DNA from: a bacterium
Lineage (GTDB): Bacteria > JAAXHH01
NCBI GenBank assembly: GCA_963665755.1
Contig: OY762445.1
Span: 146,224-210,223 of the forward strand
Reading direction: 5' to 3'
DNA length: 64,000 nt
A program made the translations under genes and the position numbers. Below the pieces are notes generated by a model. The model was not told the origin of the DNA and ran no database searches. It saw only the letters and a program-made list of their open reading frames with translations. This document shows positions 10,551-63,917 of the stretch, piece by piece; the first letter of the stretch is position 1; each line of letters opens with the position of its first letter.

Positions 10551-11951
10551 ATGGTGGACAGATCCTACCTGTTCGATGACGACGCCATGCGCGACTTTAT
10601 CGTAAACGGCTACCACGTGATCAACGTGGATCAGCCGGTTGCGCTCCACGACGGGATTTACGAGAAGACGAAGGCGATCATCGACGATGACGGGAATCCG
10701 GGAAACAACCTGTTGCCGCGTGTGCCCGAGATCCAACAGGTCTACGACGATCCTGCCGTTCAAGGCGCACTGACGAGTCTGCTCGGACCGGACTACGTCA
10801 TGCACGCTCACCGCCACCCGCACGTGAACCCGCCGAACAGCCGTGGAGGCAACTGGCACAAGGACAGTTACTGGGGTTACAGCAAGGTGCGGGATCACCA
10901 TCCGCGGTGGATCATGGCCATGTACTACCCCCAGGACACCCCGGTTGAAATCGGACCGACGGGGGTAATACCCGGCAGCCACTACTTCGAGTCCCGCGAA
11001 GAGACCGTCGGAGGGAACGGGTCGGTCCCAGATGGATTCCCCGCGAGCGGCAAGGCGGGAACCATTACCATCATACACTTCGACCTCTGGCACCGGGCGT
11101 TTCCGAACGCAACGGACAAGGTCCGCTATATGATGAAATTCCAGTTTACGAGAATGTCAGAGCCGAACCACCCCTGCTGGAACAATCAACGAGACGAAAT
11201 CGACCTGGGCGACCTGTCGGACGATCCCCGGAGCGCCATGTGGCGGAACATGTGGCACTGGCTTGCCGGAAACGGGTCTGCGGGAACCAGGCGGGAAGGC
11301 GAGGAACACGTCGAAGCGCACGCCCAGGACCTGACGCATGAACTCGAACAGAAGCGTTTGCACGCGGCCTATAGCCTGGCGGAGTGCGGAGAATCCGCGC
11401 TACCGCATCTCCTCGAAGCACTGCAACACGAAAGGGATGAGGTCCGGCGTGAAGCGTGCTACGGACTAAGCGCGCTGGGTACCGCCGCCGTCGAACCGCT
11501 GGTATCCCTGCTCGGACACGAAAACGAACGCGTCAGGGGTTACGCGGTTTACGCCCTTGGAGACATCCGGCACCACAACCCTTCGGTTACGGGGCACCTC
11601 GCGGGTCATACAGACGACCCATCGCCTTTTGTCCGGCAGAACGTGGCCGATGCACTGGGCCAGATCAGGCTGGCTGCGGATTCGTCCGTTCCCGCGCTGA
11701 TCGGTATGATGAAGGACGTGGATGAGCAGGTTCGGTCCAGAACCGCCTACGCGCTGGCCCGATTCGGAGTCGAGGCTCAGACGGCCATTCAAGACCTTGC
11801 GGATGCGTGCTACGATGAAAACCGGTATGTACAGGGGCATGCCGCCGTTGCACTCGAACAAATCGGCACGCCGGAAGCCCTGCGCGCGCTGCTGCACTGG
11901 CTGCAGGCCTCGCGGTGGTGTCCCCTGACGACTGCGAAGAGCACGTTTTAG
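10551..11951 (+). CDS. phytanoyl-CoA dioxygenase (PhyH) family domain fused to C-terminal PBS-lyase-type HEAT repeats
   Basis: AAAGGAGAAG SD. N-terminal about 220 aa with H-x-D (NWHKDSY) and a distal His (FDLWHRAF) in PhyH-like context. C-terminal about 200 aa with at least five repeats of the x-VR-x-x-A-x-x-ALG-x-IG type (EVRREACYGLSALG, ERVRGYAVYALGDI, PFVRQNVADALGQI, EQVRSRTAYALARFG, RYVQGHAAVALEQIG). Confidence 0.75.
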   Translation: MVDRSYLFDDDAMRDFIVNGYHVINVDQPVALHDGIYEKTKAIIDDDGNPGNNLLPRVPEIQQVYDDPAVQGALTSLLGPDYVMHAHRHPHVNPPNSRGGNWHKDSYWGYSKVRDHHPRWIMAMYYPQDTPVEIGPTGVIPGSHYFESREETVGGNGSVPDGFPASGKAGTITIIHFDLWHRAFPNATDKVRYMMKFQFTRMSEPNHPCWNNQRDEIDLGDLSDDPRSAMWRNMWHWLAGNGSAGTRREGEEHVEAHAQDLTHELEQKRLHAAYSLAECGESALPHLLEALQHERDEVRREACYGLSALGTAAVEPLVSLLGHENERVRGYAVYALGDIRHHNPSVTGHLAGHTDDPSPFVRQNVADALGQIRLAADSSVPALIGMMKDVDEQVRSRTAYALARFGVEAQTAIQDLADACYDENRYVQGHAAVALEQIGTPEALRALLHWLQASRWCPLTTAKSTF

Positions 11952-14069: not shown

Positions 14070-15419
14070 TCAGGCAGACTGTCGTTCCCGCCATTCGACC
14101 TCCATGGGATCGGGGATGGCGTAGGGTTTGACGCGTTGTTCGTGCAGCCACTCCGACAGGTAGTGATCCATGCGTTGCTGAATCTCCGGCCGTTCCCGGG
14201 CCAAGTTGTACGTCTGATTCGGGTCGTTACGCATATCATACAAGGCCACCGGATCGAACCGGTAACCGAAGTCATCGTACGTCCTGACCATGAGATGGCC
14301 GGGTGTCCGCACCGCCCGTTGCAGCGTGTACAGGCCGTGACCCCAGACCAGGTAGTCGTGCAGCTGGCAGCGTCCGGTCGCAAGTCCTTCCGCGAAAGAC
14401 CGGCCGTCATAGTATTCCGGTACTTCCCCGCCAATCAGGTCGATCAGCGTGGCGCTGAAATCCACATTGTACAGCAGGTCGTCACTAGAGGATCCTGGCG
14501 GCGTAGTCCCCGGCCACTTGATGATCAGCGGGACCCGGTGTATGCATTCGTCGGCGCAGACGTGATCCCCGTAGATGCCGTGCTCTCCCATGGCCTCGCC
14601 GTGATCCGCCGAGATAATGACCGCCGTGTCGTCCAGGCCGCCCAGGGCGTCCAGTATCTGCTCCACGTGGTGGTCGGTGTAGCGGATCTCCGTGTCGTAC
14701 CCGGTCACCATGTGATTCAGATCGCGGGTATCCCGGATGGCGTCCGGCATGTTCGGCGTGGGACTGGGCCGGTCGTGGGGAAAGAGGTGGGACGCGGTGA
14801 ACCAGCCGTCGATGTCCTGGTGGCCGCGGATCGTCTCGTTGTCCGGCCAACTCACAGCCGGCGGATGGGCCGCCATGCGGTCGAACCGGTCGCGGGGCGC
14901 TTCGTAGACCCGGTGCGGGTCCCAGTAGTTGATGTACAGGAAGTAATCGTCCCGGCCGCCGTTCGCGGCGATCCATTTCAGTACGGCTTCGTTGACCTCG
15001 TTCGCCGTCTCGTCCCCCGTCTTCAGGTTGGGCGAATGGAACTCCGACCAGCCCAGCCCGAACCAGGTCGCGCAGTGCCGGGTGGGGAAGTTGGAGAAGC
15101 AGACCGTGTCGTAGCCGTGTTGGCGCAACTTTCTCTGAACCAACTGGTTCCGTTCGTCGGGTCCGCCGTAGCGCTGCTCCAGGATGTGCAGCTTGGAAGC
15201 GGGACCGCCGTGGGTCACCACGCCGTTGTTGATCCCGAAACGGCCGGTTATCCAGCCGTGCCGCGAAGGCATGCAGGGCGAATCCGCGCAGTAGTACCGG
15301 TCGAACCGCATCCCCTGCGCGGCGATTTCATCGATGGCGGGCGAGGTGGGCCGGCCGTAGCCGTAGCAACCCAGGTGGTCGGGCCTCAGACTGTCGATGT
15401 CGAAATAGACGATGCGCAA
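14070..15419 (-). CDS. Cys-type sulfatase (alkaline-phosphatase superfamily), no signal peptide
   Basis: DSLRPDHLGCYGY metal-binding N-terminus. C-x-P-x-R FGly motif (CMPSRHG). No N-terminal signal sequence. Confidence 0.8.
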   Translation of the reverse strand: MRIVYFDIDSLRPDHLGCYGYGRPTSPAIDEIAAQGMRFDRYYCADSPCMPSRHGWITGRFGINNGVVTHGGPASKLHILEQRYGGPDERNQLVQRKLRQHGYDTVCFSNFPTRHCATWFGLGWSEFHSPNLKTGDETANEVNEAVLKWIAANGGRDDYFLYINYWDPHRVYEAPRDRFDRMAAHPPAVSWPDNETIRGHQDIDGWFTASHLFPHDRPSPTPNMPDAIRDTRDLNHMVTGYDTEIRYTDHHVEQILDALGGLDDTAVIISADHGEAMGEHGIYGDHVCADECIHRVPLIIKWPGTTPPGSSSDDLLYNVDFSATLIDLIGGEVPEYYDGRSFAEGLATGRCQLHDYLVWGHGLYTLQRAVRTPGHLMVRTYDDFGYRFDPVALYDMRNDPNQTYNLARERPEIQQRMDHYLSEWLHEQRVKPYAIPDPMEVEWRERQSA

Positions 15420-15457: not shown

Positions 15458-16729
15458 CTACGCCGCAACGGCCTTGTCGATGATTACCTTCATCTTGTCG
15501 CCGTGTTTGTGTCGGCTGGCGGCTTCGATTAGGGCTTCGATGGGTAGAAACCCGTTGTCCTGCAGCCAGTGGGCTATGGCGGCCAAAGCGGCGCCTTTCG
15601 GTCCGCCCGTCTTTCTGAAATCCCCGGTCACCACGTTGGACGGACCGGGCGGACCGAGCGGACCGGGACACCCTCCAAGCTCGGTACCAAGCTTCTTGTC
15701 CGCGATCACCAGGGTATGGCCGCCGATGCGGGACCGCACCTTGTCCAGCCCATCCTGCGATATGACGATCATGATGTCGGGACAGTCGATCCCGGTGTAA
15801 TGGATGGGGTTCCTGGAGAGGATGACTTCCGCGACGGAAAACCCCGTGCCGATCGTGATGGGGTAGTCGCCCTTCTTGGTGGCGGACAGGCCGGCCGTAA
15901 TGCCCGCGGTGGACAGCAGGTCACCCGCGGACTGGATGGCCTCACCGGCCGAACCTGCGACGATGATCTCCAGGCGGCCGTCCAGCGGCGCATCGCATGT
16001 GCGTTCGATTGGTTTAAGGGCGTCAAAGAGGGACTGGCCCATCAACCGGTGCGGCCGGGATACAGGCCGCTGGTTCCTTGTTACCACGCTCTCGTAGTCC
16101 GCCGTATCATGGAGTTCCTGTACTTTCCTCATTCCGTATGCGGGACACATCTCCACGATTTCGATGAGGGAGAATCCAGGTGTGGACAGGGCCTCCTTCC
16201 AGAGCTCGGAAGTGTCCTTGCCGATGAAAGTCCGCGCGGTGTACGCCGCGCCGGCGTTGTGCGCCAGGGCGCAGATGTCGTATCCTGGCACGGCCGATTC
16301 CGGTCGTTCCGGTTCCTTGAACTCGGTGGAGGACAGTCCGCTGGTCTGGCCGCCCGTCATCCCGTAAACCATGTTGTTCTGAACCACGAGGGTGAGATCC
16401 AGGTTGTGCCGTGCGGCTTCGAGCAGGTGCTGCAGGCCGATCGTGGCGCCGCCGTCGCCCTGCAGGGCGATGATCTTCTTCTCCGGATGCTCCAGGCCCA
16501 TGCGGATGCCCATGGCCAGGGCGACCGCCCGGCCGTGGAGCCCGTGAATGGTGTGGCAGGTCAGGAGCGGATCCACGAGCCCCGTGCAGCCGATGTCGCT
16601 TACCACGATGACGTCGAGGGGGTCCACGTCCATGTCCGCGAGCGCCTTGCTCATGGATTTGTTGGCGACGGTATGACCACAGCCCGGGCAGTAGGGCATT
16701 TTCAGGTCATTCAGGATGGTTTCCTGCAT
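15458..16729 (-). CDS. 2-oxoacid:ferredoxin oxidoreductase beta subunit (TPP-binding) fused to gamma domain
   Basis: N-terminal YCPGCGH with a GDGG TPP motif. C-terminal about 190 aa POR-gamma-like domain. 19-bp overlap with the alpha gene. Confidence 0.8.
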   Translation of the reverse strand: MQETILNDLKMPYCPGCGHTVANKSMSKALADMDVDPLDVIVVSDIGCTGLVDPLLTCHTIHGLHGRAVALAMGIRMGLEHPEKKIIALQGDGGATIGLQHLLEAARHNLDLTLVVQNNMVYGMTGGQTSGLSSTEFKEPERPESAVPGYDICALAHNAGAAYTARTFIGKDTSELWKEALSTPGFSLIEIVEMCPAYGMRKVQELHDTADYESVVTRNQRPVSRPHRLMGQSLFDALKPIERTCDAPLDGRLEIIVAGSAGEAIQSAGDLLSTAGITAGLSATKKGDYPITIGTGFSVAEVILSRNPIHYTGIDCPDIMIVISQDGLDKVRSRIGGHTLVIADKKLGTELGGCPGPLGPPGPSNVVTGDFRKTGGPKGAALAAIAHWLQDNGFLPIEALIEAASRHKHGDKMKVIIDKAVAA

Positions 16730-53193: not shown

Positions 53194-53315
53194 TGCATCC
53201 CGGTCCCGGACTCAGTGACTCATTCCATAGAAACCAAACGTAACTACAGGCCTAATACTGCTTTGTATATAACTCTTCTGGTTTGGCTAATATATACCTT
53301 TGAATACCAGGTATG

Positions 53316-53356
53316 CAAGTCCCGGCCGTCTTGGAATACAAGTCCCGGCCGTCTTG
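53316..53356. promoter_or_regulatory. 2 x 18-bp direct repeat CAAGTCCCGGCCGTCTTG, 5-bp spacer, in a divergent promoter region
   Basis: Read directly at 53316-53333 and 53339-53356, between the minus-strand hypothetical gene and the SMP-30 gene. Confidence 0.4.
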
Positions 53357-53524
53357 CCACACACGATCCCGGAATCCCGTGCCGGCCCCACCGGATTTCC
53401 CCCATGTCCCGCCTTGACCCTTGACATCTTTTGGTATATATACTTGCAATCCCGTCGATACGTCCTTCCCCGGCGGTACCGCACGCGTACATTTCTGTTC
53501 TGTGGCAGGTCGATTTCTGCCTTC

Positions 53525-54463
53525 ATGACCGATCAACCGGAGTATGCCATGTTGGCGACCATTGAAAAGATTGCAGAAGTAGATGCGACGGTGGGCGAGG
53601 GGCCCGTCTGGGATCCGGACAGCGGGACGCTGATGTGGACCGACATCCGGACCGGCAGGTTCTTCTCGTATGACCCGGCGACGAATCAGAACCGACAGGT
53701 GCACGACGGCTTCAACGTAGGCGGGTTCGCCTTCAACGAATACGGCGGCCTTGTGGCCTGCATCTGGGACGGCGTCGTACTATGGAACTCCGACGAGGAC
53801 TGGGTGCGCATTTTCGACGAGACCCATGAAGGAGAACCGTTGTGCTTCAATGACGTGACGGCCGACCCCGGCGGCCGGATGTTCGCTGGCTCCCTGATCG
53901 ACGGCGGTCTGGGCAAACTGTACCGCTTCGATCCGGACGGCGGTGTGGAAGTCATCGAGGAGGGGATCGGGTGCAGCAACGGCATGGGTTACTCGCCGGA
54001 CGAATCCATCATGTACTACACCGATTCGGCCGTGCGGACGATCTACGCCTATGATTACGATCGGGCGACCGGCTCGGTCTCCAACCGTCGGGATTTCGTC
54101 AAGCTGCCCGATACGGCGGGTGTGCCGGACGGGATGACCGTCGATTCCGAAGGTTACGTCTGGACGGCGGTCTGGTTCGACGGATGCATTATCCGGTTCG
54201 ACCCGGACGGCGTGGAGGAGCGTCGCATCGCGCTACCGGCTATACAGACTTCGAGCGTCATGTTCGGAGGTCCGGATCTGACTGACATCTACGTCACGAC
54301 CGCCGGGATCGAAGTGATACCCGGCTCGCCTCTCGACCCCAAGGACTACGATTGGGAGGCATATGGACAGGGTTACCGCGGCGGCGGCCTGTTCCGCGTA
54401 CGGCAGGACATTCAAGGCAAGCCCGAATACAAAGCCCGTTTTCCGTGGCCTGATAAATCATGA
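53525..54463 (+). CDS. SMP-30/gluconolactonase/LRE family protein
   Basis: Six-bladed beta-propeller signature (GPVWDPDSGTLMWTDI; NGMGYSPD; DGMTVDSEGYVWTA). Confidence 0.8.
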   Translation: MTDQPEYAMLATIEKIAEVDATVGEGPVWDPDSGTLMWTDIRTGRFFSYDPATNQNRQVHDGFNVGGFAFNEYGGLVACIWDGVVLWNSDEDWVRIFDETHEGEPLCFNDVTADPGGRMFAGSLIDGGLGKLYRFDPDGGVEVIEEGIGCSNGMGYSPDESIMYYTDSAVRTIYAYDYDRATGSVSNRRDFVKLPDTAGVPDGMTVDSEGYVWTAVWFDGCIIRFDPDGVEERRIALPAIQTSSVMFGGPDLTDIYVTTAGIEVIPGSPLDPKDYDWEAYGQGYRGGGLFRVRQDIQGKPEYKARFPWPDKS

Positions 54464-57875: not shown

Positions 57876-58628
57876 ATGACGAAGGTGATCGAGGGGGAAC
57901 GTAACCGTTTCCACGGCGTGGAAGTTGGTTCCGAAGACCTGCCCGACACACCGGATGGATTCAAGGAGCGTCTGGACCATTCGATCCGGGAGTGGAAGGC
58001 GGAGGGTTTACAGGTTGCCTGGTTCAAGGTCCCCCTGTCCCGGGCCTTCCTCATTCCCCCACTGGTGGACGCGGGCGGAGTATTCCATCACAGTACCACC
58101 GACTACCTGATGCTGACGCTCCGCCTGGCCGAAAGCGCCTTCGTGCCGCTGTACGCTACCCATTACATCGGCGCGGGCGGCGTGGTGATCAACGAGAAGA
58201 ACGAACTGCTCGTGGTCTGCGAACGGTTTCGCGGGGGACGCGCGCCGTATTACAAGCTGCCCGGAGGCGCGCTGCAGCCGGAGGAACACCTGGCCGAGGG
58301 CGTGGTCCGTGAAGTCTTCGAGGAAACGGGCGTGCCGACCAGTTTCGACGGGCTGGTCTGCTTCCGGCACTGGCATGGCTACCGGTACGACAAGTCGGAC
58401 ATCTACTTCGTCTGCCGGTTGAAGCCGCTGCACCAGATCATCAAAATGCAGGCCACGGAGATCGAAGAGTGTTTCTGGATGCCCGTGGATACCTACATGG
58501 GCTCGGAAAACGTCAGCCAGTTCAACAAGCTCATCGTCAAGGCCGCGGTGGAAAACGAAGGCCTGAAGGAAACATGGGTCGACGGATACGGCGATCCGGA
58601 CCGGTACGAGTTTTTCATGCCGGAGTAG
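57876..58628 (+). CDS. Nudix hydrolase (NUDT6-like, with N-terminal Nudix_N_2-type domain)
   Basis: Nudix box GGALQPEEHLAEGVVREVFEETGV. Confidence 0.75.
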   Translation: MTKVIEGERNRFHGVEVGSEDLPDTPDGFKERLDHSIREWKAEGLQVAWFKVPLSRAFLIPPLVDAGGVFHHSTTDYLMLTLRLAESAFVPLYATHYIGAGGVVINEKNELLVVCERFRGGRAPYYKLPGGALQPEEHLAEGVVREVFEETGVPTSFDGLVCFRHWHGYRYDKSDIYFVCRLKPLHQIIKMQATEIEECFWMPVDTYMGSENVSQFNKLIVKAAVENEGLKETWVDGYGDPDRYEFFMPE

Positions 58629-58700: not shown

Positions 58701-60107
58701 ATGGCTAAGACACGCCGCCGAAAGAAGAAGCGCCCCAATATCGTATTGCTGGGCGTGGATTCCCTTCTGGCCGATCACATGAGCTGCTACGGATATCATC
58801 GGCACACCACGCCCCATATCGACCGGTTCGCCGAGGGAGGCGCGCTGTTCGAGAAGACCTACAGCGCCCATATCCCCACGACGAGCGCCTATGCCTCCAT
58901 GCTGACCGGCCTGGACGCCTTTGGCACCCAGGTAGTGGCTCTGCGGCATAAGGGCGGACTCCGGGAGGACGTGCAGACGCTGCCCGAGATCCTGCGGGAG
59001 CACGGATATGCGTCCACCTGCGTGGGTTTCGGGGGAAACCCGTCCTCGCGAGGTTTCGACAAGTACATCGAGTATCCGAGCTGGGGCAGCTGGAACGAGG
59101 GGCGCAGTCCCAAGGCGCAGAATCTGAACGACGTGGCGATCCCGGAGCTGGACCGGCTGGCCAAACGGCGCGGACCTTTCTTCCTGTTTCTGCGCCATAT
59201 GGATCCTCATGCGCCGTACCTGCCGCCGGAACCCTACGAACGCATGTTCTATCACGGCGACGAGTGCGATCCTGAAAACCGGTCCATGGATCCCGTCAAG
59301 GCGTTCAAGCCTTTCTGTGATTTCTTCGCCGCGTGGATGCCTCCCGGCATCACCGACAAAGACTACGTCATCGCCCAGTACGACGGCGCCGTCGCGTATA
59401 TGGACGCCTGTATCCAGACCATCTTCAACGCTCTGGAAGCCCACGGCATCATGGACGAAACGATCGTGATCTTAAATGGGGATCACGGCGAGACCCTCTA
59501 CGACCACGAATGCTGGTTCGATCACCACGGGCTCTACGATGTTACGCTCCACGTCCCGCTCATCATCCGGTATCCAGGCAGGATCCCTGCGGGTAGCCGC
59601 ATCAGCGGGTACAACCAGCACAAGGATCTCGTCCCCACCATCATGGATCTGGCCGAAATCGACGCTGGGATCGACTACGACGGGGACAGCCTGATGGCGC
59701 TGGTCGACGGCACGGTTTCCTCCTTCGACAGCGAATTCTATATCACCGAGTGCACGTGGATGCGCAAGCACGGCTGGCGGACGCCGCAGTGGAAGCTGAT
59801 GGTCGCCCTGGAGCCGGATTTCCACTTCAAGCCGACGATTGAGCTGTACAACCTGGTGGAGGACCCGGACGAGAACCGGAACCTGGCCGAGGAGTTGCCG
59901 GAGGTGGTGAGCCTGCTCAAGCGGCGGATGAACAACTGGATACGGAAGCGGGTGAAAGAGACCGGAAAGCGTAATCCCATGCTTACCCAGGGGGACTGGC
60001 ACGGGCACGAGGGCGTGGGTGCCTTCAAGACATCGCAGCAGGCCTACGACACGATGCACATCGGCGACCCTGATCAGGCCGCCAGTCTGCAGGCGCGCAG
60101 CAGGTAG
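58701..60107 (+). CDS. sulfatase-fold (alkaline-phosphatase superfamily) hydrolase/transferase with Thr at the FGly position; no signal peptide
   Basis: DSLLADHMSCYGY metal-binding N-terminus. The position of the C-x-P-x-R motif reads IPTTSAY (Cys->Thr, Arg->Tyr). Basic N-terminus MAKTRRRKKKRP. Confidence 0.75.
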   Translation: MAKTRRRKKKRPNIVLLGVDSLLADHMSCYGYHRHTTPHIDRFAEGGALFEKTYSAHIPTTSAYASMLTGLDAFGTQVVALRHKGGLREDVQTLPEILREHGYASTCVGFGGNPSSRGFDKYIEYPSWGSWNEGRSPKAQNLNDVAIPELDRLAKRRGPFFLFLRHMDPHAPYLPPEPYERMFYHGDECDPENRSMDPVKAFKPFCDFFAAWMPPGITDKDYVIAQYDGAVAYMDACIQTIFNALEAHGIMDETIVILNGDHGETLYDHECWFDHHGLYDVTLHVPLIIRYPGRIPAGSRISGYNQHKDLVPTIMDLAEIDAGIDYDGDSLMALVDGTVSSFDSEFYITECTWMRKHGWRTPQWKLMVALEPDFHFKPTIELYNLVEDPDENRNLAEELPEVVSLLKRRMNNWIRKRVKETGKRNPMLTQGDWHGHEGVGAFKTSQQAYDTMHIGDPDQAASLQARSR

Positions 60108-60243
60108 AGCGCACCGCGCCTCGCGCACCGAAGTCGAAACCTGGGGTAAAAACCCGACTGCATAATCTACACAAGTAACGGTAAAAATACAGTTTAACGC
60201 GCGTAAAACGAAACACGAAGAATCCGCAAAGGAGTGATTGAAG

Positions 60244-61239
60244 ATGGGTCTGAATATCGCGGTGGTTGGTTTGGGCGGCATCGGAAACAACCATGCCCGG
60301 AACTACCAGGCACATGAAGCGTGCACGATAGTGGCCGTTTGCGACGCCCTGAAGGACAAGGCCGATCAGGCGGCGCAGGCTTACGGCTGCAAGGCGTTCT
60401 ACAGCGTCGGCGACCTGCTGAACAGCGGACTGAAGGTGGACGTGGCCAGCGTCTGTACGGCTGGCGTGGAGAACGGCGGCGACCACTACGAACCGACGAT
60501 GGAATTGCTCGGTGGCGGCATCGCCGTGCTGGGCGAGAAGCCCATATCCAACGAGATCCCGAAGGCCAGGGAGATGGTCGCGCTGGCGCGGGATCGGGGC
60601 CTTCGCTACGGGATCAACCTGAACCACCGCTTCACGCCTGCCGCGCTGCGTGCGAAGGAGTGGGTCGAGGCAGACAGGCTGGGCGAACTCAATATCATCA
60701 ATATGACGATGTGGATCAACAACCCCAACGAGAGTTCGCCTCATTTCCACATGCGCGCGCTCCATCCCCATTCCATCGACGTGATGCGCTATTTCTGCGG
60801 CGACGTGGAAAAGGTCCAGGCCTTCTTCAAGAAGGGCAGGGGCCGGAAGATCTGGTCAAACGTGCAGGTCAACATGCTGTTCGAAAATGGTGTTGTGGGC
60901 CACCTGACGGGAAGCTACGACGCCGGGGGCAGTTATGGACTTGAAACCTGCGAAGTCGTGGGATCCGACGCCCGGTTCGTCATACGCGAAGCCTGCGAGC
61001 AACTGGAATATTACCCCAGGCATTCCCGGGAAGTAGAAACCTTTCAATACCTGGGCGGTATGATGGGATTCTCCGAGACTTTCGGTTCGCGGATTACGCG
61101 CTGGATCGAACAGAACCTGGAAGGCACGGCGCCTGAGGAGATCGACGCCAAAGCCGAGGATGCCTTGCGCGCCCAGTTGATCATTGAGAGTGCCATTGAA
61201 TCCTGGGATACCCATTCCGTGGTAACGGTACAATACTGA
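60244..61239 (+). CDS. Gfo/Idh/MocA family NAD(P)-dependent oxidoreductase
   Basis: AAGGAG SD. Rossmann motif VVGLGGIGNNHA. GEKP and a C-terminal alpha/beta domain. Confidence 0.8.
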   Translation: MGLNIAVVGLGGIGNNHARNYQAHEACTIVAVCDALKDKADQAAQAYGCKAFYSVGDLLNSGLKVDVASVCTAGVENGGDHYEPTMELLGGGIAVLGEKPISNEIPKAREMVALARDRGLRYGINLNHRFTPAALRAKEWVEADRLGELNIINMTMWINNPNESSPHFHMRALHPHSIDVMRYFCGDVEKVQAFFKKGRGRKIWSNVQVNMLFENGVVGHLTGSYDAGGSYGLETCEVVGSDARFVIREACEQLEYYPRHSREVETFQYLGGMMGFSETFGSRITRWIEQNLEGTAPEEIDAKAEDALRAQLIIESAIESWDTHSVVTVQY

Positions 61240-61327
61240 ATGGGAAACCGGTCCATACCGCTCGATCCGGTAATCGAGGGTCAGCCCGTTGCCCGTTCCA
61301 ATGCGTCAAAACACCAAAGGAGAGAAC

Positions 61328-62125
61328 ATGAAGCTCGGGGCAAACTCGGTACTGTTCGGTGGATACGACATGGAAACGGCTTTTAAATACCTGGCCATGG
61401 CCGGGTATGATGGCATAGAGGTGTCAGCGATCGGCGGCATGAGCGAGCATCTCGTCCTGTCGGACTGGCGGGCTATCGCGCCGGAAATCAAGCGGTTGTC
61501 GCGGGAGTACGGTCTGGAACTGCTGGCCATGGAGCAGCCGTCTCAGGATGAGGACATCATGGAAGCCGCTTTACAGGCCGCGTCCGAGACGGGCATCCCG
61601 ATCATCAACTGCGGACCCGGCGGATCCTCAGGCGACGAGGATAGCCTGCAGGCGTCCATTGACTCCCTTGGCCGGCTGGCGGACAGGGCGGAGACCTACG
61701 GTGTTACGCTCTGCGTCAAGGCCCACGTAGGCGCCAGTATTTTCGATACGCCAACGACGCTGAGGGCCATGGAAGCGATCTCTTCGCCCGCATTCGGAAT
61801 CGACATGGATCCCTCCCATATCCACCGTGCCGATGAAAACCCCGTGGAGGCCATCAAGGCGGTGCTTCCTCGCGTTCGGCATGTCCACATCCGCGACTGC
61901 AAGGGCCGTCAGGCTGGTCCGGGCGCGCCGGAGAACCAGGCCAACGGCCGCGGCGATATCGATCTGGTGGGCTATGTGCGAGCCCTTCACGAAGGCGGGT
62001 ACGACGGACCACTGAACCTCGAGGTCATCGGGGCAAAAGAGTATTCGCTGGAGCAGTGCTGCGTAATCGCCGCAGAGACCCGGGGACACATGCAGGCGTG
62101 TCTGCAGGCATGCGGAGCGCGGTAG
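61328..62125 (+). CDS. sugar phosphate isomerase/epimerase (xylose-isomerase-like TIM barrel)
   Basis: AAGGAGAG SD. AP_endonuc_2-like barrel; 266 aa. Confidence 0.75.
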   Translation: MKLGANSVLFGGYDMETAFKYLAMAGYDGIEVSAIGGMSEHLVLSDWRAIAPEIKRLSREYGLELLAMEQPSQDEDIMEAALQAASETGIPIINCGPGGSSGDEDSLQASIDSLGRLADRAETYGVTLCVKAHVGASIFDTPTTLRAMEAISSPAFGIDMDPSHIHRADENPVEAIKAVLPRVRHVHIRDCKGRQAGPGAPENQANGRGDIDLVGYVRALHEGGYDGPLNLEVIGAKEYSLEQCCVIAAETRGHMQACLQACGAR

Positions 62126-62813: not shown

Positions 62814-63917
62814 ATGAAAATCACCAAGCTGGAGACGTTCCTGGTCAAGCCCCGCTGGCTTTTTCTCAAGATCCACACCGACGAGGGCCTGGTGGGACTC
62901 GGCGAGCCTATACTGGAGGGCCGGGCGAAGACCTGCGCGCAGGCCGTGGCGGAACTGGAACCCTACCTGGTCGGCAAAGACCCCACCCGGGTGGTCCACC
63001 ACTGGCAGGCCATGTACCGCCACGCCTTCTACCGTGGCGGTCCGATCCTGACCAGCGCGCTCAGTGGGGTGGAGCAGGCGCTGTGGGACCTCGCAGGCAA
63101 GGCCCTGGGCGTCCCGGTATACCAGATGCTCGGCGGTCCCACGCGCGACCGGATCCGAATCTACAAGGGCGGAGGAGACCCGGAAACCATCAAGGACTGG
63201 ATCGCGCAGGGTTTCACCTGTTTCAAGACGGGACCGTACAAGGAACGGCCGTCCCGGATCATAGAGAACAAGGCGTTTATCGACACGGCAGCCGATCATT
63301 TCGCGCGGTTACGGGAAGTCGCCGGACCGGAAATCGATCTTGCCATCGACTTCCACGGCGCGATCAGCCCCCAGACGGCCAAGGTGCTCATCAAGGAACT
63401 CGAACCCTACCAGCCTTTCTTCGTGGAAGAGCCCGTTCAGTGCCAGAACGTCGACGTGCTCGCGGAAATCGCCCGGGGTACTCATCTGCCAATCGCCACG
63501 GGCGAACGCGTCTTCACCAAGTGGGGGTTCCGGGAGATACTGGAGAAGCAGGCCGCGTCCATTCTGCAGCCGGACCTGTGCCACGCGGGAGGCATCTTCG
63601 AAGTAAGACTGATCGCGGGCATGGCGGAGGCCTATTACGGTGGCATCGCGCCGCACAATCCCCTGGGGCCCATTTCTCTGGCAGCCTGCCTGCAATTGGA
63701 CGCCTCAATCCCCAATTTCGTCGCCCAGGAGCATACCACGCTGGGCGAGGGATACCTGAAAAAGCCCTTCGTCTTCAAGGATGGATTCGTGGAACTGCCC
63801 ACGGAACCGGGGCTCGGGATCGAGCTGGACGACGATGCCATGGAGGACAAGATCGACCACGACTGGCGGAACGGAGAGAGTTACCTGGCCGACGACGGTT
63901 CCGTGGTGGACTGGTAG
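62814..63917 (+). CDS. enolase-superfamily D-galactonate dehydratase family protein
   Basis: MKITKLETFLVKPRWLFLKIHTDEGLVGLGEP N-terminus typical of the DgoD/mandelate racemase subgroup; full-length barrel. Confidence 0.8.
   Translation: MKITKLETFLVKPRWLFLKIHTDEGLVGLGEPILEGRAKTCAQAVAELEPYLVGKDPTRVVHHWQAMYRHAFYRGGPILTSALSGVEQALWDLAGKALGVPVYQMLGGPTRDRIRIYKGGGDPETIKDWIAQGFTCFKTGPYKERPSRIIENKAFIDTAADHFARLREVAGPEIDLAIDFHGAISPQTAKVLIKELEPYQPFFVEEPVQCQNVDVLAEIARGTHLPIATGERVFTKWGFREILEKQAASILQPDLCHAGGIFEVRLIAGMAEAYYGGIAPHNPLGPISLAACLQLDASIPNFVAQEHTTLGEGYLKKPFVFKDGFVELPTEPGLGIELDDDAMEDKIDHDWRNGESYLADDGSVVDW

Follow-up and report, generated by a model that had tools for sequence, protein, structure and literature searches.

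The 64,000-nucleotide stretch analyzed here (hereafter the window; assembly GCA_963665755.1, contig OY762445.1, positions 146,224 to 210,223, from a bacterium of the GTDB lineage JAAXHH01) carries a gene for a sulfatase-fold protein that we refer to as SULF-A. It is followed by genes for an oxidoreductase (GFO1) and a triosephosphate isomerase (TIM)-barrel protein (referred to as TIM), and preceded by a gene for a Nudix hydrolase (Table 1). Public assemblies of Gemmatimonadota-like genomes hold a protein identical to SULF-A. From its sequence and structure model, SULF-A is predicted to be a soluble, cytoplasmic, metal-binding protein of the alkaline phosphatase superfamily, built on the scaffold shared by sulfatases and phosphonate monoester hydrolases (PMH). 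Thr occupies the position where sulfatases carry the residue that is converted to formylglycine (FGly).

Table 1. Features of SULF-A, its module and the related loci. Positions without a prefix refer to the window; the prefix L denotes a related or adjoining locus. EfAS and MCR-1 are comparison enzymes discussed in the text. APS, adenosine 5′-phosphosulfate; PAPS, 3′-phosphoadenosine 5′-phosphosulfate; aa, amino acids.
Feature	Position	Strand	Basis	Remark
SULF-A, Thr-type sulfatase-fold protein	58701-60107	+	ATG-started open reading frame (ORF), 468 aa; Pfam, AlphaFold2 (AF2) model, Foldseek	
Asp20	58758-58760	+	invariant in alignments A1 and A2	predicted first metal ligand, end of strand beta1; corresponds to EfAS D20
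T60-T61-S62-A63-Y64	58878-58892	+	alignments, AF2	replaces the C/S-x-P/A-x-R formylglycine motif; T60 predicted nucleophile
V-G-F-G-G-N	59022-59039	+	alignment to 5g2v and 9s03	replaces the sulfatase I-G-K-W-H sulfate-binding/HisA motif
D168-P-H170-A-P-Y173	59202-59219	+	alignments; invariant in A1 and A2	H170 pairs with the sulfatase/PMH 'PH' His
D261-H262-G263-E264	59481-59492	+	invariant	predicted second metal-ligand pair and conserved Glu; corresponds to EfAS D311/H312 and MCR-1 D465-H466-G467-E468
F-D-H275-H276-G-L-Y	59517-59537	+	alignments	H275 at the site of the S1/PMH sulfate-binding Lys
GFO1, Gfo/Idh/MocA NAD(P)-dependent oxidoreductase	60238-61239	+	Pfam	SULF-A partner
TIM, xylose-isomerase-like TIM barrel (AP_endonuc_2)	61289-62125	+	Pfam	SULF-A partner
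Nudix hydrolase with PF18290 N-terminal domain	57876-58628	+	Pfam	72 bp upstream of SULF-A
Nudix hydrolase of the L003 locus	L003:5055-5816			locus 80% identical to the window
Galactonate dehydratase	62814-63917	+	448 vs NCBIfam equivalog cut-off of 311 bits	flanks module
SMP-30/gluconolactonase-family gene	53300-54463	+		flanks module
Second AP_endonuc_2 TIM barrel	L091:15181-15981	-		flanks module, just past window end
Canonical Cys-type paralog (C-M-P-S-R)	14070-15419	-	BLASTP, Pfam	reference of the earlier note; outside module
DUF6785/DUF6784 membrane protein, 656 aa	12037-14007	-	Pfam (4.6e-115)	flanks Cys-type paralog
PhyH-HEAT fusion	10551-11951	+	Pfam	flanks Cys-type paralog
Genes beside the Cys-type paralog	15458-16729; upstream, L092:125-5574	- (window)		2-oxoacid:ferredoxin oxidoreductase subunits (POR/TPP_enzyme_C), electron transfer flavoprotein (ETF) alpha, Fe-S/CCG-domain protein
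APS kinase	L013:12454-12993; L001:14728-15270			in operons of SULF-A orthologs
Further APS kinase loci	L011, L012, L014, L015, L017, L020-L022, L024, L025, L060, L067, L082, L083, L085, L090			
PAPS reductase	L001:15267 onward			follows APS kinase in Armatimonas
ATP sulfurylase	L067:4244-5446; L060:7915-9039		PF01747 + PUA_2 (E 3.5e-101)	
SULF-C-type Cys genes (C-[GC]-P-[AS]-R)	L013:14387-15802; L017:15767-17209; L024:12570-13958; L083:12593-14038			last in Bacillota operon
CAZyme-type neighbors	L060:13979-16606; L005:1205-3808; L001:1740-3053; L018:518-1585	-; -; +; +		

SULF-A matches the Pfam Sulfatase family PF00884 over residues 12-319 (2.3e-52) and the sulfatase C-terminal subdomain SGSH_C (2.9e-17). 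The AF2 model, built from an input alignment of 69 sequences, has a mean predicted local distance difference test score (pLDDT) of 89.2 and a predicted template modeling score (pTM) of 0.91. The top 50 Foldseek matches of this model are all FGly sulfatases or PMH enzymes, with template modeling (TM) scores of 0.61-0.70, E-values of ~1e-26 and 18-22% identity, and a phmmer search of PDB recovered sulfatase/PMH structures with a best E-value of 7.5e-29. The features of the alkaline phosphatase superfamily were all found: an Asp after strand beta1, a helix that starts with the predicted nucleophile, and an Asp-His pair. No signal peptide or transmembrane segment was detected at the N-terminus, as strand beta1 begins at residue 13 in the model and the sequence ahead of it contains no hydrophobic segment. 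The basic tail KTRRRKKKRP is not kept in orthologs.

No curated NCBIfam model reached its cut-off for SULF-A. A sulfatase model scored 158 against a cut-off of 481 bits and the PehA/PMH model NF045661 scored 111 against 900 bits. For NF028537, which tests for phosphoethanolamine transferases and LtaS, the score was 31 against 500 bits; the separate LtaS and EptA models gave 32.5 against 970 and 27.7 against 561 bits, and they match SULF-A solely across the DHGE region (~30 bits). Given curated scores so far under the cut-offs, we rejected membership in the EptA/LtaS, PehA/PMH, choline sulfatase and nucleotide pyrophosphatase/phosphodiesterase (NPP) families.

An earlier note on this DNA, based on alignment by eye, had proposed that Thr replaces the FGly-forming Cys and Tyr the motif Arg. 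The peptide TYSAHIPTTSAYASMLTG that it cited lies in SULF-A at 58857, and its counterpart YYCADSPCMPSRHGWITG lies in the 449-aa Cys-type paralog of the window. BLASTP aligned the two proteins at 28% identity (E 6e-43), with T60 under C49 and Y64 under R53. In phmmer alignments to solved structures, T-T-S-A-Y of SULF-A pairs with S-G-P-S-R of BT4656 (5g2v), A(FGly)-S-P-A-R of the Agrobacterium PMH (4uph), S-T-P-A-R of 7oz8 and C-V-P-A-R of EfAS (9koq). The AF2 model places T60 at the very start of helix 60-69, after strand 48-54, which is where enzymes of the alkaline phosphatase superfamily canonically have their nucleophile. Both replacements are upheld by these alignments, and the Thr also by the hidden Markov model (HMM) alignment described below and by its helix position. 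Alignment with PF00884 members placed T60 at the nucleophile position and no Cys or Ser elsewhere at that position, and a six-frame motif scan found no C/S-x-P/A-x-R followed by the conserved TG within the SULF-A ORF.

According to the authors of SulfAtlas, Thr cannot be converted to FGly, and it occurs in 30 of the 59 Pfam seed sequences of PF00884 (PMC5066984). SULF-A therefore cannot be a formylglycine sulfatase. The seed sequences with Thr are of the membrane-anchored, LtaS/EptA-like 'TxNxE' type, from which the clade of SULF-A differs. We considered EfAS (NF052527, 9koq), a 'manganese-dependent arylsulfatase' of E. faecium, as an FGly-independent precedent and rejected it, since its C61 lies in C-V-P-A-R and forms FGly.

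The rest of the predicted active site combines features of two groups of enzymes. With S1 sulfatases and PMH enzymes (BT4656, 5g2v; A. radiobacter PMH, 4uph; R. leguminosarum PMH, 2vqr; EfAS, 9koq), SULF-A has in common the two-domain fold, a single metal site at the same positions and the conserved 'PH' His; PMH and EfAS are also soluble. In EfAS the corresponding residues D20, C61, D311 and H312 were validated by mutation, and mutating D20, D311 or H312 abolishes activity (PMC12421950). In contrast to these enzymes, SULF-A has Thr for FGly, Tyr for Arg, Phe-Gly-Gly for Lys-x-His (with F110 opposite the Lys and G112 opposite the His in the 5g2v and 9s03 alignments) and His275 for the second Lys, which is placed under H275 in three of the four displayed alignments (5g2v, 4uph and 9s03). 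All the sulfate-specific residues of S1 sulfatases (motif Arg, Lys-x-His and second Lys) are thereby replaced. The earlier note had also read an N-terminal metal-binding Asp/His as retained. This is correct for D20, but H26 of 'DSLLADH', conserved in 79 of 111 representatives of the clade described below, is not a metal ligand in solved relatives.

The second group comprises EptA/LptA, EptC, MCR-1 and LtaS, which like SULF-A have a Thr nucleophile on a PF00884 domain, bind metal through an acidic residue, Thr, Asp and His, and carry D-H-G-E followed by a His ~13 residues on, plus a further conserved His. In MCR-1 the Zn1 ligands are Glu246, Thr285, Asp465 and His466, the motif D465-H466-G467-E468 is followed ~13 residues on by the conserved His478, and His395 is conserved as well; the mechanism of this type involves a covalent phospho-threonyl intermediate, and phospho-Thr285 was seen in crystals (PMC5216409). 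Matched by motif and spacing, the predicted set D20/T60/D261-H262-G263-E264/H170/H275 of SULF-A reproduces the phosphoethanolamine transferase residue set. Those enzymes differ from SULF-A in having an N-terminal multi-helix membrane domain, an extracytoplasmic location, lipid phosphodiester substrates and Glu as first ligand, whereas SULF-A has no membrane domain, Asp20 as first ligand and a sulfatase-type C-terminal subdomain. Across the SULF-A orthogroup (35 sequences, non-redundant at 85%) the catalytic positions are invariant, including the metal ligands, T60, H170, E264, H269 and H275, which argues for an active enzyme.

Searched exhaustively with HMMER, a set of 1.84 billion representatives (50% clustering) gave 102,315 relatives, 9,594 of them at E<=1e-30, Cys-type sulfatases included. 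We counted residue conservation in the best 150 of these representatives, with denominators that vary by position. Position 60 is Thr in 116 of 121, and position 64 is F, Y or H and never Arg. D20 is kept in 109/111, D261 in 133/135, H262 in 134/135, H170 in 133/137 and H275 in 123/134. We define the soluble Thr-type clade by the motifs D[ST]LRADH, PTxPx[FYH]T..TG, [WM]DPHxPY, DHGE and FDHHGLY..HVP, a length of ~430-480 aa and no N-terminal extension. SULF-A bears every one of these motifs, though its residue 62 is Ser where Pro is usual. Among the 108 Thr-type representatives with a covered N-terminus, the first metal-ligand Asp lies within 25 residues of the start in 71, leaving no room for a signal peptide or anchor. 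The description of SULF-A in the earlier note as an unusual soluble member does not hold: SULF-A is typical of a very large clade, in which about two thirds of the Thr-type representatives have such an N-terminus.

Clade members abound in Chloroflexota, Armatimonadota, Latescibacterota, Hydrogenedentota, Poribacteria, Bathyarchaeia and Bacillota, and they carry only generic source names ('sulfatase', 'sulfatase family protein', 'arylsulfatase A-like enzyme' or 'sulfatase-like hydrolase/transferase'). Our literature searches found no characterized soluble Thr-type PF00884 enzyme, no clade member and no account of the operon described below, and we found no crystallized clade member. A Thr nucleophile on this fold is already known; a soluble clade on the sulfatase scaffold with its own motifs and a conserved module linked with sugar oxidation and sulfate activation is not described in the literature searched. 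Some clade members are very long (P0134, 1450 aa; P0160, 1549 aa; P0191, 1100 aa; also P0173, P0206 and P0212), with two to four separate Thr-type domain matches or large N-terminal extensions, some with transmembrane-like segments.

We collected 90 related loci, partly through exact-match look-ups and partly by scanning a single genome of each GTDB species. The SULF-A orthogroup, defined by the motif P-T-T-[PS]-[AG]-Y, an identity of 54% or more and a position beside GFO1 and the TIM barrel, is 54-81% identical to SULF-A. It includes the proteins of the window and of L003 (both Gemmatimonadota-like), Armatimonas rosea (76%) and, at 57-64%, Bacillota (many Paenibacillus, with Gracilibacillus, Neobacillus, Lederbergia and Ectobacillus), together with a metagenome-assembled genome that is Caldilineaceae by record name. 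Usable flanks were available for 24 ortholog loci, many of which are from Paenibacillus, so that the counts are not phylogenetically independent. An AP_endonuc_2 TIM barrel adjoins SULF-A in all 24, and a Gfo/Idh/MocA oxidoreductase, detected by tblastn and Pfam, in 23. The oxidoreductases beside SULF-A in L001, L003, L005 and L013 are orthologous to GFO1 (61-79% identity). The TIM barrel also accompanies remoter Thr-type relatives at 45-57% identity, and a second Thr-type paralog pair (PTHPSF, PTMPSF) accompanies TIM and GFO genes in Chloroflexota, Actinomycetota and Armatimonadota.

The module of SULF-A, GFO1 and TIM spans at least three phyla. The window and L003 carry this minimal form, as does L006 in a rearranged order. 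SULF-A, GFO1 and TIM of Armatimonas rosea (P0320), Caldilineaceae (P0332) and Bacillota (L011-L024) are 57-85% identical to those of the window. This is far above the expectation for vertical descent across phyla, and suggests that the module spreads horizontally. In Bacillota the full operon order is AraC - GFO1 - TIM - SULF-A - GFO2 - APS kinase - SULF-B - SULF-C, where SULF-B is a Thr-type paralog ('PTEVAH') and SULF-C is Cys-type (C-x-P-x-R) with a PMH-like DQLRYD N-terminus. Because this Cys-type gene closes the same operon, FGly-type and Thr-type paralogs are predicted to be co-transcribed. The operons are tightly packed, with some genes overlapping at start and stop codons. They are preceded by CUT1 or Opp-type ATP-binding cassette (ABC) importers, and DUF624 and PhyH are frequent companions. 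AraC regulators, ABC importers and DUF624 in the flanks are typical of carbohydrate utilization loci. A Pfam census of 134 flanking ORFs at 12 loci gave 28 Sulfatase, 24 GFO_IDH_MocA, 15 AP_endonuc_2, 11 BPD_transp_1, eight APS_kinase, eight AraC, seven SBP_bac_1 and two ATP-sulfurylase ORFs.

The pairing of a Gfo/Idh/MocA dehydrogenase with an AP_endonuc_2 TIM barrel resembles the IolG/IolE, DgpA/DgpBC, BT2158/BT2159-type 3-keto-glycoside and LgdA/LgdB levoglucosan routes. The best matches of the module partners were IolG, UDP-GlcNAc 3-dehydrogenase, DgpA, IolE/IolI and 2-hydroxy-3-keto-glucal hydratase, all weak and far under the equivalog cut-offs. GFO1 itself is under every NCBIfam cut-off, with IolG as its best match (1e-27), and TIM is only weakly similar to IolE, IolI and hydroxypyruvate isomerase. 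We therefore rejected IolG/IolE, DgpA/BC, LgdA/B and BT2158/9 as identities of the partner genes. We are aware of no sulfatase-fold enzyme and no APS kinase in any of these pathways.

Genes for sulfate activation recur in the operons. A full-length APS kinase (PF01583, 1.2e-55; TIGR00455, the apsK equivalog-domain model, 204.7 bits against a cut-off of 138.7) was found in 16 of the 24 ortholog loci. It always lies directly beside SULF-B; in L013 the two genes share 4 nt, the APS kinase stop overlapping the start of SULF-B. An ATP sulfurylase stands by APS kinase and SULF-B in two operons (L060 and L067), and a PAPS reductase follows the APS kinase in Armatimonas (L001). No APS kinase was found in the 64-kb window. 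SULF-B and SULF-C are the genes most closely tied to this sulfur signal, and the module of SULF-A can also be found without these two. The earlier note had concluded that the protein is probably a phospho- or phosphono-ester enzyme rather than a sulfatase. Thr60 bears out that it is not a formylglycine sulfatase, but a sulfur-related role may still apply, given the Cys-type sulfatases, the APS kinase and, in some cases, the ATP sulfurylase of the ortholog operons.

The reading that we prefer, at about an even chance, is that SULF-A is a cytoplasmic metallo-hydrolase or transferase with a Thr nucleophile, which removes an anionic ester, most probably phosphate, from an imported sugar or cyclitol. 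A single metal held by D20, T60, D261 and H262 would activate T60 for attack on the anionic ester group, most probably a mono- or diester of phosphate, of a small sugar or cyclitol derivative that the cell has imported, and a covalent phospho-threonyl intermediate would result. Binding of the transferred group and protonation of the leaving group may fall to H170 and H275 together with E264 and H269, and the transferred group would then be released by water or an acceptor hydroxyl. GFO1 could oxidize the de-esterified sugar, and the TIM barrel could isomerize, dehydrate or eliminate the resulting keto-sugar. We infer the catalytic role of T60, the metal identity, the step order and, above all, phosphate as the ester. 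A review of the superfamily describes Ser and Thr nucleophiles for phosphoryl-transfer enzymes and presents FGly as a feature of every sulfatase (PMC3693508). Phosphate is favored because of this precedent and the phosphoethanolamine transferase-like residue set.

Chemistry and precedent thus appear to favor phosphate, whereas the gene context hints at sulfate metabolism, and several observations weigh against the preferred reading. The sequence and fold of SULF-A are nearer to sulfatases and PMH (E ~1e-29, TM ~0.7) than to any characterized Thr-type enzyme. The proposed equivalence of H170 with MCR-1 H395 and of H275 with H478 is drawn from motif spacing. The ortholog operons hold APS kinase and, in two cases, ATP sulfurylase; a Cys-type (CxPxR) sulfatase is present in Bacillota operons, and a PL6 (polysaccharide lyase family 6) chondroitinase-B-like lyase at one locus. 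No phosphate-regulon (pho/pst) family is among the recurrent neighbors in the census of 134 flanking ORFs. The phylogenetic dependence among the 24 loci further lowers the weight of the module counts.

These points lend themselves to an alternative, unlikely in our judgment, in which the Thr-type enzymes of the operon, SULF-A included, act on sulfate esters by FGly-independent sulfuryl transfer. They could be sulfatases in which the His cluster or a second metal assists hydrolysis of a sulfo-threonyl intermediate; alternatively, they could be sulfotransferases of the ping-pong type, with PAPS supplied by the ATP sulfurylase and APS kinase of the operon. Such a role would fit the APS kinase at 16 of the 24 loci, the ATP sulfurylases of L060 and L067, the PAPS reductase of L001, the Cys-type sulfatases, the sulfatases as nearest sequence and fold relatives, and the nearby PL6 lyase and GH116 (glycoside hydrolase family 116) gene, the latter with a canonical sulfatase. 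There is also a chemical precedent, as alkaline phosphatase, which has a Ser nucleophile, shows measurable sulfatase side activity (PMC3693508). SULF-A, however, has none of the S1 sulfate-specific residues. The APS kinase adjoins SULF-B and not SULF-A, and the window, L003 and L006 have SULF-A, GFO1 and TIM without APS kinase. We also know of no Ser- or Thr-nucleophile sulfatase or sulfotransferase on the sulfatase fold, and found none in the literature searched, which counts further against sulfuryl transfer. The broader proposal that the whole soluble Thr-type clade performs FGly-independent sulfuryl transfer through a sulfo-threonyl enzyme, as sulfatase or PAPS-dependent sulfotransferase, with the operon-encoded ATP sulfurylase and APS kinase feeding or draining that enzyme, seems to us less probable still. 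If FGly-independent sulfuryl transfer did occur, it would represent a novel way for enzymes with the sulfatase fold to handle sulfate esters, within a new cytoplasmic sulfated-sugar pathway that includes sugar oxidation and keto-sugar rearrangement.

It is also rather improbable that SULF-A acts on nucleotides as an NPP-like phosphodiesterase or pyrophosphatase, cleaving a phosphoanhydride or the 3′-phosphate of 3′-phosphoadenosine 5′-phosphate (PAP), PAPS/APS or a nucleoside diphosphate (NDP)-sugar. A nucleotidyl- or phospho-threonyl intermediate would form, and the activity would link SULF-A to sulfate activation and to the Nudix gene of the window. NPP and PhnA (PF01663) belong to the same superfamily and likewise have a Thr nucleophile and a soluble catalytic domain (PMC3693508). 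SULF-A gives a partial match to PF01663, a Nudix gene lies upstream in the window and in the syntenic loci L003 and L004, and the operons include genes for APS kinase and ATP sulfurylase. But the PF01663 match (54 residues, 33 bits, residues 227-280) is limited to the shared DHGE region, and the bimetallo Zn site of NPP and PhnA, with six ligands and within another domain organization, is absent. None of the constant partners is a nucleotide enzyme; they consist of a sugar-type oxidoreductase and a TIM barrel. The Nudix gene is a lineage-specific neighbor, absent from the Armatimonas and Bacillota operons, and its membership in the module is therefore doubtful. In L003 a polysaccharide deacetylase gene is inserted between the Nudix gene and SULF-A.

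Loss of the FGly motif and of the sulfate-binding residues could be taken to mark a catalytically dead sulfatase relic or ligand-binding pseudoenzyme, yet this is very improbable for a protein whose active-site residues are invariant in a multi-phylum orthogroup (54-81% identity) and in most of a clade of thousands of clusters, and whose gene sits in tightly packed operons with some overlapping start and stop codons. That SULF-A is an ordinary formylglycine sulfatase whose true Cys or Ser was missed by misalignment is scarcely credible: C29 and S28 of the conserved 'SCYGY' lie in the loop after beta1, in a stretch also present in the Cys-type paralog, no FGly motif was found in the ORF, and the paralog BLASTP, the four PDB alignments, the 150 representatives aligned by HMM and the secondary structure of the AF2 model converge on T60, on which basis we rejected it.

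Counts of PF00884 genes that are used to infer sulfated-glycan degradation would include enzymes that cannot be formylglycine sulfatases. The conserved module connects the predicted ester cleavage with sugar oxidation and also, as was not expected, with sulfate activation, and its cultured hosts, Paenibacillus chondroitinus, Armatimonas rosea and Neobacillus niacini, make it directly testable. The Thr-type clade and the Cys-type paralogs of the same genomes and operons also form a natural system for nucleophile switching in the alkaline phosphatase superfamily. The Cys-type paralog of the window shows the Thr-clade motifs DSLRPDH, WDPH and DHGE; it has no I-G-K-W-H, and its DHGE is followed by His in place of Lys. 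Among the top Thr-type representatives, moreover, there are a few nested sequences that bear Cys or Ser (P0228, P0244). Together, these observations suggest nucleophile switching inside one clade.

Carbohydrate-active enzymes (CAZymes) near the operons include the PL6 chondroitinase-B-like lyase, GH116, GH30 and a BNR/sialidase-like protein, in different lineages; no single family is common to the loci, so they do not identify the substrate. A promoter and terminator scan around SULF-A gave counts equal to the shuffle level. Around the module of the window, the gluconolactonase-family gene, the galactonate dehydratase and the second TIM barrel suggest a sugar-acid (De Ley-Doudoroff-like) route in this genome. 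The 2-oxoacid:ferredoxin oxidoreductase, ETF and Fe-S genes beside the Cys-type paralog appear unrelated to SULF-A. Of the two genes flanking this paralog, PhyH recurs at nine loci and DUF6785 recurs near sulfatase-fold genes in L005 and L007-L009, where it might serve as the importer of non-Bacillota lineages.

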